Assembly (NCBI GenBank): GCA_963849325.1
Contig: CAWKHF010000002.1
Span: forward strand, 416,001-480,000
DNA length: 64,000 bases
From: an uncultured Planctomycetota bacterium
GTDB taxonomy: Bacteria > Planctomycetota > Planctomycetia > Gemmatales > Gemmataceae
Reading direction: 5' to 3'
Positions 26,928 through 38,177 of this stretch are shown here, one piece after another. The position numbers and the translations under genes were made by a program. The first letter of the stretch is position 1. Each line of letters opens with the position of its first letter. The notes beneath the pieces were generated by a model. The model saw nothing but the letters and a program-made list of their open reading frames with translations, did no database searches and had not been told where the DNA came from.

Positions 26928-27092
26928 GGGAATCCTTTCCGCTTCCTTCGACTATTCTCCCTCGACCCGGAGGGTCCGCGTAATGTACCCGCTCGCCGCG
27001 AAACGCCGCAAGATGAACTCGCCGCTCTTGCCGATGCCTGTTCTGGTCCCCACGACGCGCCGGCTGATACAATCGGGGACGGGAGGTCCATC

Positions 27093-27436
27093 GTGAACGC
27101 ATCCGCATCCGCAAGCACATTGACTCGGACACGCCGTATCTGCCGGAACTCCGGCCACTGATCGGCAAGACCGTTGAGATCATCGTTCTCGATGAAACGG
27201 TCGGCCCAGAAGGCAAGCAGTTGGAGACGGAAGAAACCTTCTTTGGTCTGGCCCCGCCGCCGCCGACGCCGGAAGAGCAAACGGCGTACTTGGCGAAGTT
27301 CCGCGCCATGCGCGACAATCCGGCCTATACGAAACTATGGCCTTACCTTGATCTGCTCCTGACGGGGCAACTCGATATCGACGTAGACGAGGTAGTTCAA
27401 GCCCGTGGAATGACCGCCCATGATTCTGACCGATAG
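27093..27436 (+). CDS. Putative antitoxin-like small protein (frameshift near start)
   Basis: GGAGG SD; IRIRKHIDSDTPYLPELRPLIGKTVEIIVLDE..; 3' end overlaps a PIN-like start. Confidence 0.55.
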
Positions 27437-27450
27437 TTCCATCCTGATCC

Positions 27451-27539
27451 GTCAGATTGGACGACCAGGACCGGGAAGGGTTTCGTCGTTTCCAAGTTGG
27501 AATTGGGGGACAATGCCAGGAGAACTTCTCCGCGTTCAT
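27451..27539 (-). pseudogene. Truncated PemK/MazF-family toxin fragment
   Basis: After a 1-nt shift reads M.RGEVLLALSPNSNLETTKPFPVLVVQSD, like the MazF start MKRGDVV..KxRPxLVVQ; ATGA overlap with the upstream antitoxin. Confidence 0.6.
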
Positions 27540-27766
27540 ACGTCATTGTAAACATCCATTTCCGGTCGATCCCAGTCCTCCGCAGCCGCTCCCCAGCGCG
27601 ACCGTAGTTCCGCAGTCTCCGCCTCGTCGATGCCGTGCGCCCGCAAGTCGATGCTTCCTTCGATGGGAAGGAACGTCACCACGACACGCGCCTCTTTCAC
27701 GTCCGGCGGCGTTTCCAACAGTTCGATTTTGCCGTGCCGATAAATGCCCTCAACCGCTTTCAGCAT
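27536..27766 (-). CDS. Antitoxin-like protein (DUF104/AF2212-like N-terminus)
   Basis: GGAGG SD; MLKAVEGIYRHGKIELLETP..VVVTFL..EDWDRPEMDVYN. Confidence 0.7.
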   Translation of the reverse strand: MLKAVEGIYRHGKIELLETPPDVKEARVVVTFLPIEGSIDLRAHGIDEAETAELRSRWGAAAEDWDRPEMDVYNDV

Positions 27767-28079
27767 GTACGTTTCCTCCAGCAAAGTTTGAGACCCCTTG
27801 TGCGGGATCGTTTGCGTTCTACTGATCGGTGCGCAAAGGACGCTGGGCTGGAATTGTGGACCTAAGATGCGCATTTCGCCGCGATGGCCGCCCTATTGTC
27901 CGGCTTGAGGCTGTTTCACGAGCCGCCGTGAGGAAGGCTTCGAGATACGAGGGCAAGGGAAGGCGCTAAGAACCTTTTTGCATAGCAAAAGTATTAAAAT
28001 GGTTCCTGATATCTTTTTTCCCCCAAATGCCGCGATCTCTGCCAGTCACAACCGCGATTGGTCATCGGACATGCATCGC

Positions 28080-31000
28080 TTACCCCTTCTTTCTCCCCTT
28101 CTTCGAGCCGATCTCGTTGCCGAAGAGGTCCGTGGGGATGGCGTTGCCGAACAGGTCTGCAGGCCGATCCTTCACCGACTTCTCTGGGGGCGACAGCGCT
28201 TCCGCCTTCTCCTCGTCGGTCAGCTTCTGGGATTCTGGAGCCGGTTTCATCGGCCGACCAAGCACCTGATAGGCCCGCGCCGTCGCCATCCGGCCACGCC
28301 GCGTCCGCACGATGAATTGCTCCCGCAGCAGGTACGGCTCGATCTCGTCGCTGAGGGTATCAACCGGCAGGCTCATGCTGGCCGCCAGGGATTCGACACC
28401 GACCGGCCCGCCGCCGTGTACGCCGACCAGTATTTCCAGATAACGGCGGTCCTGTTTATCCAGTCCATCGCGATCGACCTCGGCCATGTCCAGGGCGGCG
28501 CGGGCGATGTCGAAGGTGATGCGGCCATCGTCCTCGCTGGCGGCAAAGCTCCGCGCCCACCACAGCCGGGCGTTGGCGAGGCGCGGCGTGCCGCGACTGC
28601 GCCGCGCCAGCTCAAGGGCCGCATCGTCGGTGATCGAGGTTTGCAGCTTGCAGGCATTGATGCGCACGATCTCGGCCAACTCCTCAACGGTGTAATACTC
28701 AAGGTGCTCGTGCATCTTGAAGCGATCGCGCAGCGGTCCAGACATCATTCCGCTGCGGGTGGTCGCCCCGATCAGCGTGAACGGTTTCAGACGCAGGTTG
28801 ATTGTCCGCGCATTCATGCCTTCGCCGAGTACAATATCGAAGCGGAAATCCTTCATTGCTGGATAGATCAACTCCTCGACAAGACGCGGCATCCGGTGGA
28901 TTTCGTCGATGAACAGCACCGAGCCTTCCTCGACGTTGGTGAGAAAGGTCAACAGATCGGCCGGCTTAGTTAGCGCCGAGCCGCTGGTCATTTGGATCGA
29001 CGTGCCCAGTTCGTTGGCCAGTGCGTTAGCGAAGGTGGTCTTGCCCATTCCCGGCGGGCCGTCGAACAAGATGTGCGATAGCGGCTCCTTGAGTTTTTTA
29101 CAGGCGTTCAGGACGATGCTCAGGCGCTGGACGATCGCTTGTTGGCCGATGATTTCGCGCAGCCATCGCGGCCGCAGCGACGCATCGCGCCGCCGCGATT
29201 CCTCGTCGCCGCCAGATTGCACGATGGCTTGAGGTGCCGTGTAGGAGCCTCGCACGTCTTCCACCTGTTTGAGAGATTCAACCCAGGAAGGGATAGTGCC
29301 GATCGAGTACTTCCGAATTATCGACTGAGCTTCCTGTTTAAGAGATTCAACCACGGAAGGGATGGGGGCGGCAGGGGCCGGTAGCACTGCTGGGGCGGGG
29401 CTGGGAGCCGCAGCGGGGAACAAGCCCTTGACGGAGTTGGCCGGCACCCATTCCAACATGCCGTACTGCCAGACAAAATCGGTCGGTTTCAACTGTCCGG
29501 AAGCCGCCAGTTGCTTGAGTTGAGTGGCCGTGATGGGCGCGATGGCTTGCTGGCCGTTGAGCGTGTAATGCCATTCATTCGCCGCCTTGGCGGAGACGGG
29601 GGGAAGGACGGCCGAATCGCCGAGGCTCTTGCCGGAAGGACTTCTATAAGGGGTTGCTAGATAATGCCAAGGGGGCACGACGGCCGAATCGCCGAGAGTC
29701 TTGCCGGCGGGGGGGAACAATCCTTTGATGGCGCCAGCGGGTACCCATTCGACCATGCCTTCCTGCCAAACGAGGTCGGTCGGCTTCAGCTGCCCGGAGG
29801 CCGCCAATTGCTTGAGTTGGGTGGCGCTGATGGGCGAAGCGGCGGGTTGGCCGTGGATCGTATAATGCCATTCATTCCGCATCAGGTCGGGCAGTGCAAG
29901 GCCGGAGGGAATGGCCTGATCGACCTGGAGGCCGGGTGCTGCTTGTATTTCGCTAATCCGCCGTGCCAACTCAGCCGCGTCTGTCGGGCGTTTTTCCGCT
30001 CGTGATGCCAGGCAGGATGCCAGTAAAGCGAGAAAGTCTTCACTCACTCCGCGTGAACGTACTTCATCCTGCCAATCAGCCGGCAAAGACACACTATTCA
30101 TGTCGCCGGTGAGGAGTTGATACCAGATGACACCGAGGGCGTGGACATCGTCGCGCGGGTCTGGCGGCTCCCCGTCCTTTTGTTGCGGTGAGGCGTAAAA
30201 GGGCGTGTGGGCACCTCGCAACACCGTCGGAAGCAAGTTACAGCCCACACGACTACGTTTCGCCGCCGCCAGCGCCTGACCAGCTACGACACCGCCGATG
30301 CCGAAGTCAGCTACGCGGGGAGCGTACCCTCCCTTATCGGTTCGGTTCAGGAGGATGTTCGCTGGCTTGAGATCACGATGCACGATGGGCGGATTAAGCT
30401 TGTGTGCATACGCTACAATCTCCGCTAGTCTGTATACCAATTTTGTAGCTTTTTCGACCGTGCATGCTGAAGGCGAGCGGTGCCATTGGGCGATCACTTT
30501 AGTCAAATCACCCCCAGCCACGTACTCGTACTCCAGACAGGGCGTCTCGGCGTTGAGATAGGTGTGCAAGAGTTTCACGATGCCCAGATGTTTCCCTTCG
30601 CACATGACACGGCCCAGCAAGGCTGCCTCGTTGCGGAGCACTTTGGCCGCCGTCGCATCGGTGCAGAACTTGAGAGCTGCTACCGTGTGGGGAAGGTGGG
30701 GGTTGCATGCCATCCAGACTTCCCCGAAGCCACCTACGCCGAGCAGTTCCTGTAACTCCCAATCTCCGATACCGGGCGGACGGTCTCCGGGCCGAAACCG
30801 GGGCATCTTACTGGGAAGGAGGAGGAGTAGGTCTTCGGCGCGTTGCAAGGAAAGTTCAGAAGAGAGCGATCGTCCACTCGAATCTCCGCGGCAGCGCTGG
30901 GACTGACGGATGGCGTTCGGTACGAGAGCTACATAGTCCGCTACCGCTTGGCAGACAGTCTCCAGATGTCCAGCGCCTTCCACCTGCGCAGCCAATTTGG

Positions 31001-31217
31001 CGTAGCCCTTTGTTTCGGCGACCGACAGTCGGGCTACCGCTTGCAGCTCCGCTCGCAATTGATCTTCTGGCCGGCCTCTGTTCCACCACTTCCAAACGTC
31101 TTTCGCCATGTCTGGCAAGACATCGACAGCAAAATCCCCTAATACGCCGCCTCCGGCGATGTTCAAGGCGGCTCTGGCAATGAACCGCAAGAGGGCGGGC
31201 GGCGTGTGCATGGCCAT
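28080..31217 (-). CDS. Fusion protein: N-terminal helical domain, Ser/Thr kinase, 2x GYF_2 (DUF4339), RuvB Holliday-junction ATPase
   Basis: Single open 1045-aa frame. Kinase GVGGFGEVW, AALK, HRDLKPAN, ADFG. Two WHY..GQ..PI...LKQLAASGQLKPTD.VW..GM.EWVPA. RuvB LRP..IGQ, GPPGMGKT, FIDEIHR, GATTRSG, LRDRF, SRGTPRLAN, IEPYLL..RTRRGR. Confidence 0.93.
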   Translation of the reverse strand: MAMHTPPALLRFIARAALNIAGGGVLGDFAVDVLPDMAKDVWKWWNRGRPEDQLRAELQAVARLSVAETKGYAKLAAQVEGAGHLETVCQAVADYVALVPNAIRQSQRCRGDSSGRSLSSELSLQRAEDLLLLLPSKMPRFRPGDRPPGIGDWELQELLGVGGFGEVWMACNPHLPHTVAALKFCTDATAAKVLRNEAALLGRVMCEGKHLGIVKLLHTYLNAETPCLEYEYVAGGDLTKVIAQWHRSPSACTVEKATKLVYRLAEIVAYAHKLNPPIVHRDLKPANILLNRTDKGGYAPRVADFGIGGVVAGQALAAAKRSRVGCNLLPTVLRGAHTPFYASPQQKDGEPPDPRDDVHALGVIWYQLLTGDMNSVSLPADWQDEVRSRGVSEDFLALLASCLASRAEKRPTDAAELARRISEIQAAPGLQVDQAIPSGLALPDLMRNEWHYTIHGQPAASPISATQLKQLAASGQLKPTDLVWQEGMVEWVPAGAIKGLFPPAGKTLGDSAVVPPWHYLATPYRSPSGKSLGDSAVLPPVSAKAANEWHYTLNGQQAIAPITATQLKQLAASGQLKPTDFVWQYGMLEWVPANSVKGLFPAAAPSPAPAVLPAPAAPIPSVVESLKQEAQSIIRKYSIGTIPSWVESLKQVEDVRGSYTAPQAIVQSGGDEESRRRDASLRPRWLREIIGQQAIVQRLSIVLNACKKLKEPLSHILFDGPPGMGKTTFANALANELGTSIQMTSGSALTKPADLLTFLTNVEEGSVLFIDEIHRMPRLVEELIYPAMKDFRFDIVLGEGMNARTINLRLKPFTLIGATTRSGMMSGPLRDRFKMHEHLEYYTVEELAEIVRINACKLQTSITDDAALELARRSRGTPRLANARLWWARSFAASEDDGRITFDIARAALDMAEVDRDGLDKQDRRYLEILVGVHGGGPVGVESLAASMSLPVDTLSDEIEPYLLREQFIVRTRRGRMATARAYQVLGRPMKPAPESQKLTDEEKAEALSPPEKSVKDRPADLFGNAIPTDLFGNEIGSKKGRKKG

Positions 31218-31368
31218 TCCACTCCGGCGAATTCAGGCGAATCGAGGTGTGGGTTATTGTCTGCCGAGCGGAGGTCCGTTTCAACCAAAAATATCTCGCC
31301 AAGGTTTTGGGTGCCACGCCTCCATTCCTCCATTTGGCTTGCTCTTCGATTGTGTCAGCAAAGACAAC

Positions 31369-32390
31369 TCAATCCTTGTTGGCGCCGCGGGTTGGTGAAT
31401 CGAGCCATCCCATCGTGCGAAACCACGCCACGGTCTCGGCGAGCGTCTCGGCCACCGGACGCGGCCGCAGTCCGAGTTCGGCGAGGCTGCGCCGCGCGTC
31501 GAAGTGCATGAGGCGGCGCGTCAGCTTGACTCCGGTGACGGTCGCGGCCGGCGCCCTATGGGTAATGACATCAGCGACGAATTCGCTGGCATACGCTGCC
31601 GCCAGGGCGACAGGGTAGGGCACGCGCCAGCGTGGCTCCGGCAGGCCGGTCAAGCGAGCGAGCATCTGAAACACGGTGAGGATCGACAGGTTTTCGTGTC
31701 CCAACAAATAGCGCCGGCCGGGGCGACCGCGCTCCATGGTGCGGACCATGCCCTCGGCCACATCGCGGACGTTGATGAGGTTGAGGTTGGCGTCGAGGTA
31801 TTCGCGGCGTTTGCCCTGGCAGAAATCGAGCATCATCTGCGTCGGCGGCGTCCGGCCGAAGTCGCCGGGACCGACCGGCAACGTCGGGTTGACCACGACC
31901 ACCGGAGCGCCGGCGCGGCCCAGGCGCAAGGCGTGCCGTTCGGCCAGGTATTTCGACCGACAGTAAGGTCCGATGACATCCTCGTAAGTGATGGGCTGCT
32001 CTTCGGTGATGGCGGCGGACTGCCGGGAGCGCGTCAGTATGCTCTCGGTGCTGGCGTGCAGCACTCGCTGGACTCCGGAAGCCAGCGCCGCCTCGATCAC
32101 ATTGACCGTCCCGACGTAATTCACCTGCCGGAATAGTCCGCGTTGCTGCACCCACAAGTGCGGGTTGCCGGCCAGGTGATACACCTCCCGACAGTCGCGC
32201 ACCGCGCCCGGACGGCTGATTTGTCGCGGATGTCCCCTGGCACCACTTCGATGCGGTCACAAGGAAGGTGGGCGATGGGCGCCTGCGGCAGATCGAGGAC
32301 GCGCACCTTCTCGCCGCGCTCGACCAGGAGACGCACCAGATGACTACCGATGAAGCCGGCCCCGCCGGTGACAAGAATGGTGGACTTCAT
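31369..32390 (-). CDS. hpnA: Hopanoid-associated NAD-dependent epimerase/dehydratase (HpnA-like), frameshifted
   Basis: LVTGGAGFIG, YHLAG, YCRSKYLAE, VVVVNPTLPVGPGD..TPP, GRPGRRYLLG. Confidence 0.75.
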
Positions 32391-35162: not shown

Positions 35163-36710
35163 TCAAGGATTGGCCTCTGCTTCGCCGCGCGGAAAGATCT
35201 CCCCAGCGAGGCGAGCGGCCTCCCTCGCCGTGGCGAGGAGCTGGTGAAAGACTTTACGGACCTTGCTCTCATCGATCTCGGCGCGGAGGCAGCGCAGCAG
35301 GGCGACCCCGTGGGCCTCGGCCAGCTGCCCGGCCACGGCGGGCAACAGCCACTCCTCGATACCATATACCTTCCCGGCCATCGTACAGATGGGAACCACT
35401 CCCGTCGCGTAGGCGCCGACTTGCTCCCACACCGCCGCCAGCGCTTGCTGGATGTTCTCTTCTTTGCGGCGAGACGGCTGCCGCCAGTCGTAGGGGGGCG
35501 ACCACTCCAGGGCCGGCGAAAGCAGATCAATGTGTGTCACCACGACGAGCAGAGGCGGTTGCTTCAACTCCGGGTGGGAGGCGAACCATTCTCGCAGCTC
35601 GTGCAGCACTTGCACGTCGGCTTGCCGGGCCGGGTTGCGCGCGTGCAGTACCAACAGCATCAAGTCCGACTGCCGGGCGCTGTCGCAGGTCACGGCGAGT
35701 TGATCGGCCTTGGCCCCCTCGTGTCCGTAACCGACCGTATCGAGAAGGACCAAATCGGCAGGGACGCCCTGGGGGTGCAAGTGATACCGCGTCACTCCCG
35801 CAGTCGCCGGCAGCACGTCCGTCAGAGCCTGTTGCTCACCGAGCAAGGCGTTGATGAGGCTGGATTTCCCCGCCTTCACCTGCCCGAGTACCGTCACCGT
35901 TACCTGGCGGGCGGACGGCGCCGGTTGAGTTGTCGTAGGCTGTGCGGCGCTCGGGAGCAACTCGCGGAAGCGGTCGGCGCCGATTCGGAGCCGGCCGCTG
36001 TTCAGCTCCACCAGATACGTTCCGAGGCGATGGACGTAGGCGGTGTAAAACCACAGGATCAAGTTCTGTTGCAGCATTTGCCAGGGCTGCGACAGACCCA
36101 GCTTCGACGCGGTAAAACGCGCTCCCGTTTCCAGGGGCGAGAACAGGGCCGTGATCGCCCAGTACACGTTGCTTGCCGGCTGATACCAGTCGAGGGCCTT
36201 CTTGGCGCGGCGCCAGTCCTTGATGGTCAGCAGATGGCCGCCGGGTACGTAGCGATCCACCAACTCCGCGAGATCGTGCGCGGCCAACTCAATGACGGCC
36301 AGGATTTCCGGCACGGTCAAGTTGGAGATGGGATCGCTTGTCCCCGGATGATAGAAGACGGCCAACTCGGCAGCCATTTCCTCCGCCGTGGTCAGATAAT
36401 GGCCCAGATTGCTCATTTTCTCCGTCGGCAGGGAATTGGCCGCCTCCGCCCGCGCCTCGACCAAGCGCCAGGCTTGCTGGTCGCGCTCGGTCCAGTGGCG
36501 GGGGGCACTGAAATCGGGGGGATGCAGCAGCACGCGCTTGCGCTGCCAGTACCAGCCAAGGGTGTAGCCGAGTCCCACGCACAGGGCCAGAGGCCACCAG
36601 GCGAAGAATCCCCAGCGCAGCGTCCATAGATAGTAGGAACCGGCGCCTGCCAGGAACAGGAAAGGTACGACCGTTAGGCCAATTACCAGCAGGATACGCC
36701 AGCGGCTCAT
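35163..36710 (-). CDS. Membrane-anchored Era/MMR_HSR1-like GTPase
   Basis: Two N-terminal TM helices; G1 GQVKAGKSS, G3 DTVG, G4 THID. Confidence 0.85.
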   Translation of the reverse strand: MSRWRILLVIGLTVVPFLFLAGAGSYYLWTLRWGFFAWWPLALCVGLGYTLGWYWQRKRVLLHPPDFSAPRHWTERDQQAWRLVEARAEAANSLPTEKMSNLGHYLTTAEEMAAELAVFYHPGTSDPISNLTVPEILAVIELAAHDLAELVDRYVPGGHLLTIKDWRRAKKALDWYQPASNVYWAITALFSPLETGARFTASKLGLSQPWQMLQQNLILWFYTAYVHRLGTYLVELNSGRLRIGADRFRELLPSAAQPTTTQPAPSARQVTVTVLGQVKAGKSSLINALLGEQQALTDVLPATAGVTRYHLHPQGVPADLVLLDTVGYGHEGAKADQLAVTCDSARQSDLMLLVLHARNPARQADVQVLHELREWFASHPELKQPPLLVVVTHIDLLSPALEWSPPYDWRQPSRRKEENIQQALAAVWEQVGAYATGVVPICTMAGKVYGIEEWLLPAVAGQLAEAHGVALLRCLRAEIDESKVRKVFHQLLATAREAARLAGEIFPRGEAEANP

Positions 36711-36730
36711 GGGGCGAGCCTCCCTCGGTG

Positions 36731-37917
36731 TCAGGACTTGTTCGTCTTCCAGGCTTGCTCGGCGCGGGTGAGTTGGCCGCGGTAATAGCGACGCAACTCC
36801 TCCGGTTGCGGTACGTGGCCCTGGTGGACGGCCTGGTAGTAAAAACAGAACGCCTTGCCCAGCGCGAAGGTGGATGCACTGGCCAGGGCGCTGCTGGCCA
36901 TCGTACCCAGCACCGGCCCGACATAAGGGACGTACTTGAGCAGCAGCCGCGAACCCTGCCGCAACAACATGCCCAGGCCGAGCGTGCTGGCGATCTCCAG
37001 GAAACGCGGTGCGGTCAGAGGTTGGCCGTACAGCTGCGCCAGGTGATATACCATCCGCGACTGAATGCCGGACAGCAGGACCAGATCGACGATAGGCACC
37101 GGCATGGCGCCGGCGCTGCCGGCGAGGGTGCTGTAACCGACGATGTACGGCAGCGCCTGCCGGGCGTAGAAGTCTTGCAAGTCGCGGCTGGCCTCTCCCA
37201 GCGAGAGCAAGGTCTGGCGGTAGGCTGCGGGCAGTAATTCGAGCAGTGCATCGCGCAGCGGCGCTCCGCCGTAGTCGGGATCGTTAAAGCCTTCCTCGGC
37301 CGTCGTCAGGTCCACCGCGACGACGCGATCGATCAGACCCTCGAAACGCCGGCGCTGTTCCGCGAGGCTGCGCAACAGATCAGACGGCAGGGCAGGGGAG
37401 TCGGTCCTCGGTTCGGCGTTTGGCCCGAAAGGGTAGGGGAGGGGGTGCTGCTGTTGCGGATACGCTTCGTGCAGGCACGTCAGCACCAGCAGCACCGGCC
37501 GAGCGACCTTCGCCGCGCGGATGGTGCGCAGGTGCGTCAGGACGTTCGCCTGAGCATGATCCAACGCCTTGACGGTGACGATCAACACCTGCGCCTGGTC
37601 GTTGAACGCGCGAGATCCTCGGCCGGATCGTAGCCCGGCTCATCGAGTCCGCGCGTGTCGAGAAAGGTGAGCAGCGGCGCCTCCCGCAGCGGAAACTGGT
37701 ACTGACGCGAGAAGCGCGTGCAGGGTTGAAAACCCTTACCGATCTCGGCGGATTCGGCGCCGGTCAGCGATCGGATCAGCGACGTTTTGCCGCTTTGGGT
37801 CTTGCCCAGCAGCCAGAAGACCGGCACGGGCATCTGTTGCCGCAGTCGTTCGAGGTACTCCTGCAAGCGCGACTCCCGCGCCGAGGCCGAAAATAGGTGC
37901 TTGATGCGCTCGAACAT
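36731..37917 (-). CDS. GTPase with C-terminal DUF697/YcjF-like domain (frameshifted)
   Basis: G1 GKTQSGKTS, G3 DTRG; AGAMPVPIVDL..IQSRMVYHLAQLYG; KYVPYVG. Confidence 0.85.
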
Positions 37918-38177
37918 CACGCGATCTCGGCGACCAAGCGGGACCGCATCGGCCTGATGGGAGGGCGAAACGGCGCCGCTTGAGGGGACTGGGGCCTTCA
38001 CGGACTTTATTGTAAGCACCCTCCGCCGCCCAGTGTCCAGAAGCGCGGCGAATCTCGAATTGAAGGCGACAGATCGTCTTGACGCGCCTGGGGGAATGGG
38101 CTATGTCCGCAGGTGTTTGGGGGGACGACCGCCGGCACCGAGCGGCGGAGGGACCGATTCGGAACGAGGGCAGAGGC

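Follow-up and report, generated by a model that had tools for sequence, protein, structure and literature searches.

In plant integrated-decoy immune receptors, a signaling domain is joined to a host-target copy that serves as bait. Bacterial ternary conflict systems have variable modules, including inactive copies of host enzymes, that the available text of Kaur et al. (2020, PMC7159879) reads as likely decoys or dominant-negative binders; according to the same text, FGS domains, repeats and, in planctomycetes, GYF pairs occur in these systems, and their kinases are mostly inactive. The Ser/Thr kinases of the Gemmataceae are expanded and have varied partner domains, acquired through duplication and shuffling (accessible portion of PMC8567305, citing Arcas 2013 and Mahajan 2020). 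As for RuvB, the available part of Wald et al. (2022, PMC9477746) describes Glu128, Asp129 and Arg171 as acting in trans in hydrolysis and nucleotide gating, and cites from Iwasaki 2000 a growth defect of a Glu128 mutant. Here we describe a gene of a soil planctomycete of the Gemmataceae that joins a Ser/Thr kinase, two GYF_2 domains and a RuvB in one polypeptide. It lies in a stretch of 64,000 nucleotides, called the window below (contig CAWKHF010000002.1, positions 416,001 to 480,000), from an assembly of 14 contigs and 8.16 Mb that is 84.7% complete. We think it is best placed in a kinase family whose members take up copies of host proteins.

A kinase-RuvB fusion is apparently undescribed; the decoy concept and the shuffling of Gemmataceae kinases are already known. 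We found none in the literature, most subscription journals lying outside the coverage and supplements being places where the architecture may be listed. RuvB is not in the main text of Kaur et al. (2020), neither RuvB nor GYF was found in the available part of Kaur 2021 (PMC8195603), and the accessible portion of PMC8567305 has neither the N-domain cassette nor a RuvB or GYF partner; the available part of PMC7824862 contained nothing that bears on the fusion.

The original prediction, made from the letters of the window alone, had the gene as one uninterrupted frame of 1045 codons in an indel-rich contig, and this holds: read on the minus strand, it begins at 31217 and ends at 28080. Its parts and its immediate surroundings are as follows.

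28080..31217, minus strand: whole kinase-GYF_2-RuvB fusion gene, 1045 aa, one open frame
30804..31217, minus strand: N-terminal helical domain, residues 1-138, seven helices in the model
29940..30758, minus strand: Hanks-type Ser/Thr kinase domain, residues ~154-426, motifs intact (Pfam, motifs, model)
29670..29882, minus strand: GYF_2 copy 1 and its linker, 86% identical to residues 1-71 of P0241
29418..29582, minus strand: GYF_2 copy 2, a tandem duplicate at 297 nt spacing, 78% identical to copy 1
29253..29417, minus strand: Pro/Ala linker in which a 38-nt motif is duplicated (PSxVESLKQ, spacing 69 nt)
28242..29252, minus strand: captured ruvB with 12 nt of upstream leader (blastn against the genome's own ruvB)
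28851..28853, minus strand: codon for K789, at the place of S. thermophilus RuvB Glu128 (alignment to 7pbl)
28080..28241, minus strand: 53-aa lineage-specific tail, two DLFGN motifs replacing the canonical QPGLFD end
31256..31284, minus strand: sigma-70-type promoter-like site TTGAAA-17-GACAAT (site search; weak alone)
27020..31400, no strand: accessory interval between hpnA and shc (congener comparison)

The domains are largely those that had been predicted. Pfam places Pkinase at residues 154-414, then two GYF_2 stretches, RuvB_N at 681-839, AAA_lid_4 at 842-915 and RuvB_C at 918-986. The kinase has its catalytic motifs in place (GxGGFG 160, K183, E197, HRDLKPAN 280, DFG 304), and a model of residues 1-429 (pLDDT 91.2, pTM 0.90) has PknB, PknI and PknA as its closest solved structures; glycine loop, Lys-Glu pair, HRDxKxxN, DFG and the bilobed fold of the model are those of a Hanks kinase. 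The helical N-domain, predicted at about 150 residues, is present, with a folded part of about 138 residues that the model builds from seven helices (pLDDT 89.5). It had no match in Pfam, PADLOC or Atlas and none in Foldseek at E<=0.001, the best VIA Z being 4.4, and Pfam matched the N-domain in none of 71 members. The RuvB part is indeed complete in length and scores above both equivalog cut-offs (TIGR00635, 377.5 against 299.05; NF000868, 418.9 against 282), but has Lys at the trans-acting Glu128. Neither ruvA nor ruvC is in the window, as had been noted: the native ruvC, ruvA and ruvB lie together on contig C5, with ruvA and ruvC once each in the genome. A canonical ruvCAB, which the original prediction had proposed to look for, is thus present, and the fused RuvB is a captured second copy.

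The kinase-GYF_2-RuvB fusion is real, not an artefact. In this assembly 18 frameshifts were counted across 26.5 kb of 21 test genes, 10 of which are broken, and since the chance of an unbroken 3138 nt is about 12%, the intact frame is weak evidence by itself. Independent records carry the case. P0240 (JGI, 467 aa) has the kinase, one GYF, the linker of the window gene and the RuvB start in a single frame until the frame shifts in Walker A; its final 18 residues are the +1 frame of the window gene, and it therefore carries the same derived codons. P0004 (NCBI, 621 aa) has a different N-domain, which matched unnamed clusters only, followed by two GYF, that linker again and a whole RuvB at 79%. 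The repeated 38-nt motif of the linker is present once, not twice, in both proteins. Across this lineage, seen in three database proteins and four runs, the RuvB parts are 79-88% identical in amino acids. The four best runs (X1 to X4) come from four studies, and between them their contigs account for kinase, linker, RuvB and tail; those of X1 and X3 bridge the linker-RuvB junction, in an X2 contig (depth 2.9) the end of the kinase runs straight into the linker, GYF being absent, at a net -642 nt, and X4 contigs are missing one GYF or the repeated linker motif. The length change is a multiple of three in five of the six joints listed with inserted letters, whereas one X3 joint breaks the frame. 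No run has half of the fusion's sampled words, no contig spans the whole gene, and there is no RNA among the runs listed for those words. At the linker-RuvB and the kinase-linker joints, where a check against a chimera had been proposed, the contigs thus favor the gene.

To judge from its sequence, the fusion is a mosaic of three donors: an N-domain-kinase cassette, a GYF_2 N-terminus and a ruvB. At 84-86% identity, the GYF units match the N-terminus of a native membrane protein, GYF_2-DUF4234, whose gene in this genome is at C6:385631-384882. By blastn, the ruvB part is 83.5% identical to the genome's own ruvB over 29252-28243, at a dS of 0.67; the protein is 86% identical to the own copy and 87-90% to four other genus-type RuvBs. 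These distances mean that the part is not a mis-joined repeat of the own gene, and a recent duplication is ruled out because it is no closer to that gene than to those of other species; its origin is therefore another congeneric lineage or an old duplication. A RuvB phylogeny, also suggested at the outset, was run as three quick trees, and in each the fusion copy nests in the genus RuvB clade (SH-aLRT 99-100); one tree groups P0004 with the fusion and two separate them. In the fusion the native start codon has become ACG (29240-29238), so the RuvB part probably has no start of its own; the former start position is Thr in P0240, and Met is kept in P0004. Pairwise dN/dS between the fusion RuvB and canonical RuvBs is 0.09-0.14. 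The 53-aa tail contains a 21-nt repeat, is common to P0353 (NCBI) and has pieces in runs X2, X3 and X4.

The N-domain and kinase together are a widespread Gemmataceae cassette with a swappable C-terminus. The part of the gene outside RuvB matched at 1e-60 in 150 of 252 genomes of the family, and the kinase motifs are kept in 227-236 of 237 cassette members; a paralogue on C12 of this genome ends in an FGE-sulfatase-like domain. We surveyed the C-terminal slot in 124 cassette relatives taken from a representative search. It held FGE-sulfatase-like domains (22), TPR (9), WD40 (6), Sel1 (6) and LRR (3), and among the single cases were HEAT, beta-helix, FHA, DUF3427, DUF4268, DUF4357, a Top1 zinc ribbon, an ABC domain, Hsp70, PilM and sigma regions 3-4 with an alpha-CTD-like domain; many relatives had no named C-terminal domain, and none had RuvB. 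Most often, then, the slot has repeats or a lectin-like domain; a host-protein copy is rare there and often has damaged motifs. Identity to single native genes of this genome (G000) is 57% for the Hsp70 part, 54% for the sigma part and 47% for the PilM part, and the three parts differ from those genes at motif positions, which we take to be ATP-binding motifs in Hsp70 and PilM and promoter-contacting arginines in sigma region 4. The slot ABC domain is uninformative because its native homologue is itself degenerate. Proteins in which the cassette stands with copies of native genes are P0467, P0436, P0447, P0444 and P0080, the copies being sigma r3-r4 with the alpha-CTD-like domain, an Hsp70 paralogue, PilM and two unnamed conserved proteins.

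Profiles of the defense kinases PD-T4-6, MAD6 and PglW match the kinase domain of the fusion (mad6 9e-39, PD-T4-6 1.5e-34). The likeness to MAD6 and PD-T4-6 is one of kinase only, with MAD6 at 74.9 against a cut-off of 460 and the PADLOC matches over about residues 136-437. In several cassette members, P0449, P0378, P0395, P0101 and P0105 among them, the alignment of the NCBIfam MAD6 profile (about 405-590) takes in the N-domain and the kinase N-lobe, which may be a spurious extension.

Like RuvB of RuvAB-RuvC (TIGR00635, 7PBL; PMC9477746), the fused copy is a three-domain RuvB with Walker A and B, R21, arginine finger, sensor II, head arginines and presensor-1 hairpin. Unlike the resolvasome protein, it is the C-terminal module of a kinase, stands outside ruvCAB, has lost its start, has Lys at Glu128 and ends in a new tail. 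Of 15 key residues checked, 14 are kept: the cis ATP pocket and arginine finger (R682, equivalent to R21; K726, T727, D771, E772; R879, equivalent to R218; R832, equivalent to R171) and the DNA-binding head arginines R971, R974 and R976, the Arg291 equivalent lying outside the check. The RuvA-binding presensor-1 hairpin (795-813) is identical to that of all three genus RuvBs compared. The exception is K789, which aligns to Glu128 of 7PBL, so that the trans signature Glu128-Asp129 reads K789-D790. Its codon is AAG, against GAG or GAA in 10 of 10 canonical codon rows, and of 225 aligned RuvB rows, 219 have Glu at this place and six have Lys, the latter being the fusion gene (three times), the copy in genome G215, P0362 and the unrelated P0221.

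Five extra RuvB copies could be compared in this respect: the fusion, P0353, P0004, the G215 copy and P0362 (P0353 and P0362 having no genome context). With expected changes derived from each copy's rate at 152 invariant columns, the three trans sites have 7 changes where 1.46 are expected (P=2e-4), and the twelve cis and DNA sites have 3 where 5.84 are expected (P=0.15). Grouping the three E128K carriers in a single clade is rejected (p-AU 0.017, in a quick tree with long branches), and the change therefore arose at least twice. The second RuvB of G215 (C11, L098:8451-10571), besides E128K, has lost the arginine finger and sensor II. It is fused to a SpoVK/EccA-like AAA domain with a CxxC end and runs against the grain of its element, which has an integrase and a Toprim primase; a canonical ruvB is elsewhere in G215.

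The fusion is rare, being present in 1 of the 252 family genomes. RuvB was matched in 232 of them and twice in 17; in the 16 two-match genomes other than this one, only G215 has a second close copy, two have split genes and the rest have a distant RuvB-like gene. No other full-length kinase-RuvB of the family was found among the best 120 long proteins, out of 1101 hits, or the 150 best representatives, the other long RuvB matches among those 120 being mostly LAGLIDADG/intein-type or domains of neighboring genes. A genome-collection scan with the junction gave 30 loci, and in none of them does a long frame precede RuvB; a metagenome scan gave 3 loci, all GYF matches only. In 401 genomes of the class, a sample that does not include G215, the E128K DNA pattern occurred in this genome alone. 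A protein of reverse order, the RuvB-TPR-kinase P0129, was rejected as unrelated; it looks like read-through of a normal ruvB into the next gene.

How might such a protein work? Because related kinases carry damaged host-protein copies in the same slot, the RuvB part may be a bait or docking piece rather than a motor. With the trans-acting signature Glu gone, the copy is probably no longer a cooperative motor. We imagine that the cassette took up a GYF_2 N-terminus from one native gene and an entire ruvB from a congeneric lineage; the copy retains its ATP pocket, DNA-gripping arginines and RuvA-binding hairpin without the trans-acting Glu. A RuvB-binding protein, either an invader's inhibitor or host RuvA or RuvB, would then bind the copy, and binding would cluster or relieve the kinase, leading to phosphorylation of host targets; the fusion would move as accessory cargo, with repair left to ruvCAB. 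That a de-activated RuvB serves the kinase as bait or docking module is, we suggest, the likeliest account, one we favor with a little less than even confidence. The original prediction had RuvB as a captured sensor or decoy, and of this the capture stands, while the pattern seen across the family agrees with a role as decoy or sensor; sensing through rings on DNA junctions, one of two means of activation that it proposed, is weakened by the charge reversal at an inter-subunit Glu and by the preferential loss on the trans face.

As far as the available text of Kaur et al. (2020) goes, the likeness to VMAP and ternary systems is that of a constant part with variable modules copied from the host, here presumably inactive to judge by their motifs. 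The fusion is unlike them in being one polypeptide and in having an intact kinase as its constant part; its immediate neighbors are hpnA and shc, without an adjacent MoxR-vWA. It is like the kinases of PMC8567305, in the portion available, as a Hanks kinase with varied partner domains. The comparison with plant integrated decoys is one of analogy only, the fusion having no NLR domain. One can envision, as a bolder and rather doubtful extension, that the kinases of this Gemmataceae cassette make up a family of single-chain integrated decoys that capture RuvB, sigma r3-r4 with the alpha-CTD-like domain, an Hsp70 paralogue, PilM and GYF, whose working residues are lost; binding by a phage or mobile-element protein would switch the kinase on, the fusion would be the member with RuvB as bait, and trans-site loss would be a repeated route for disarming RuvB. 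If the bait account is true, the cassette slot lists host proteins attacked by planctomycete invaders, RuvB included, and offers a one-gene bacterial parallel to the plant receptors. The repeated loss of trans residues in separately captured RuvBs points to a simple route from ring motor to passive binding module.

Several observations weigh against bait or docking. Relaxed selection at such divergence would produce the same motif differences in the Hsp70, sigma and PilM parts, and captured host proteins are a small minority of the cassette family, each architecture a singleton. The cis sites are not significantly protected in the extra copies; the set of five copies is small and was put together once E789K had been noticed, and P0353 retains all three trans residues. 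A single G-to-A change, which is an easy mutation, turns E into K, and one assembly is the sole source for K789 itself. The branch of the fusion has a dN/dS of about 0.14, against 0.035-0.11 for canonical copies, and includes time before capture. The fusion's neighbors are hopanoid genes, not defense genes, and viral contigs had no match to it. The Walker A frameshift of P0240 and the frame-breaking X3 joint are error or decay, and a single one of the 252 family genomes has the fusion.

The main rival is a short-lived product of the domain shuffling common in Gemmataceae kinases, in which the ruvB and GYF pieces are idle and drifting, whether or not the kinase still works. The family is known to form paralogues and to shuffle domains (available portion of PMC8567305), the gene is rare, its relative P0240 is frameshifted, a broken toxin-antitoxin-like remnant lies downstream, and 10 of the 152 invariant RuvB columns are changed in the fusion, against a mean of 0.66 in 85 canonical rows. 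Idle drift accords less well with a lineage that recurs in three database proteins and four runs with five of six length variants in frame, with changes that cluster on trans sites and are not spread evenly, and with loss of the captured start codon in both P0001 and P0240. We consider such a product a real but lesser possibility. Even as shuffling debris, the gene would be a clear case of three-donor gene birth in a lineage known for new domain combinations.

A sensor of DNA junctions seems unlikely. It would need RuvA-loaded rings, or mixed rings with host RuvB, to cluster the kinase on Holliday junctions or stalled forks, E128K giving a long-lived ring that does not move. The host has ruvA, the RuvA-binding hairpin is identical to that of genus RuvBs, and Walker A and B, arginine finger, sensor II and the three head arginines are kept. 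Repeated trans-face changes may equally weaken ring contacts, however, and a crude word search found no motif upstream of the fusion in common with the upstream regions of recA, lexA and ssb. Such a sensor would be expected to be conserved, yet a second close RuvB is absent from all 10 congeners, and the other captured proteins in the slot would be left unexplained.

It is more unlikely still, indeed very improbable, that the fusion is a spare RuvB motor that still works, either with the kinase as a passenger or under its regulation. The full length, the scores above both RuvB cut-offs and the 14 conserved key residues would agree with a motor; a canonical ruvCAB already exists, and Glu128 is a trans element of hydrolysis and gating, mutation of which gives a growth defect (available part of Wald et al. 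2022, PMC9477746). An assembly chimera or missed stop between kinase and RuvB, suggested by the indel-rich assembly and by runs with fewer than half of the sampled words and no whole-gene contig, is scarcely credible and is largely refuted by the single-frame kinase-GYF-linker-RuvB order of P0240, by the linker-RuvB bridges in P0004, X1 and X3 and the kinase-linker bridge in X2, and by the distance to the own ruvB.

The fusion is placed between the hopanoid genes hpnA and shc. In the congener G108 these genes are about 140 nt apart at matching edges; the interval holds one zinc-ribbon protein in G107 and a sigma factor, an unrelated kinase, an LRR protein and a PIN gene in G104. In four other congeners the neighborhood differs, and in one the contig ends. 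Because its contents vary among congeners, the interval is a cargo slot. Promoter-like sites number 2 in the region near the fusion, with 1.3 expected by chance; the one listed above is just inside 31291, the edge where relatives cease to match and where the match of the X1 and X2 contigs ends. By eye, a TATACTA-like word was seen upstream of recA, lexA and ssb (G000 C6:93685, C10:247697 and C12:311111, that of ssb on the opposite strand), and it is absent before the fusion.

Downstream of the fusion, at 27400-27766 on the minus strand, are a 76-aa open reading frame (ORF) without a Pfam match and then a broken frame, which we take to resemble an antitoxin and a PemK/MazF remnant. At 35163-38019, also on the minus strand and 4-7 kb from the fusion, there are two adjacent ORFs with GTPase-like P-loop motifs, one of them frameshifted.

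Other RuvB relatives include P0142, one of the long RuvB matches, which joins HEAT repeats to RuvB and has 17 member sequences. A RuvB-like gene of distant kinship (29-36% identity over its whole length) occurs in 13 of 17 family genomes examined (loci L099:3714-8672, L100, L102 and L103); in the loci read, it precedes an HTH gene and a tyrosine recombinase, and in L099 and L102 an ArdC-type gene lies upstream of it.

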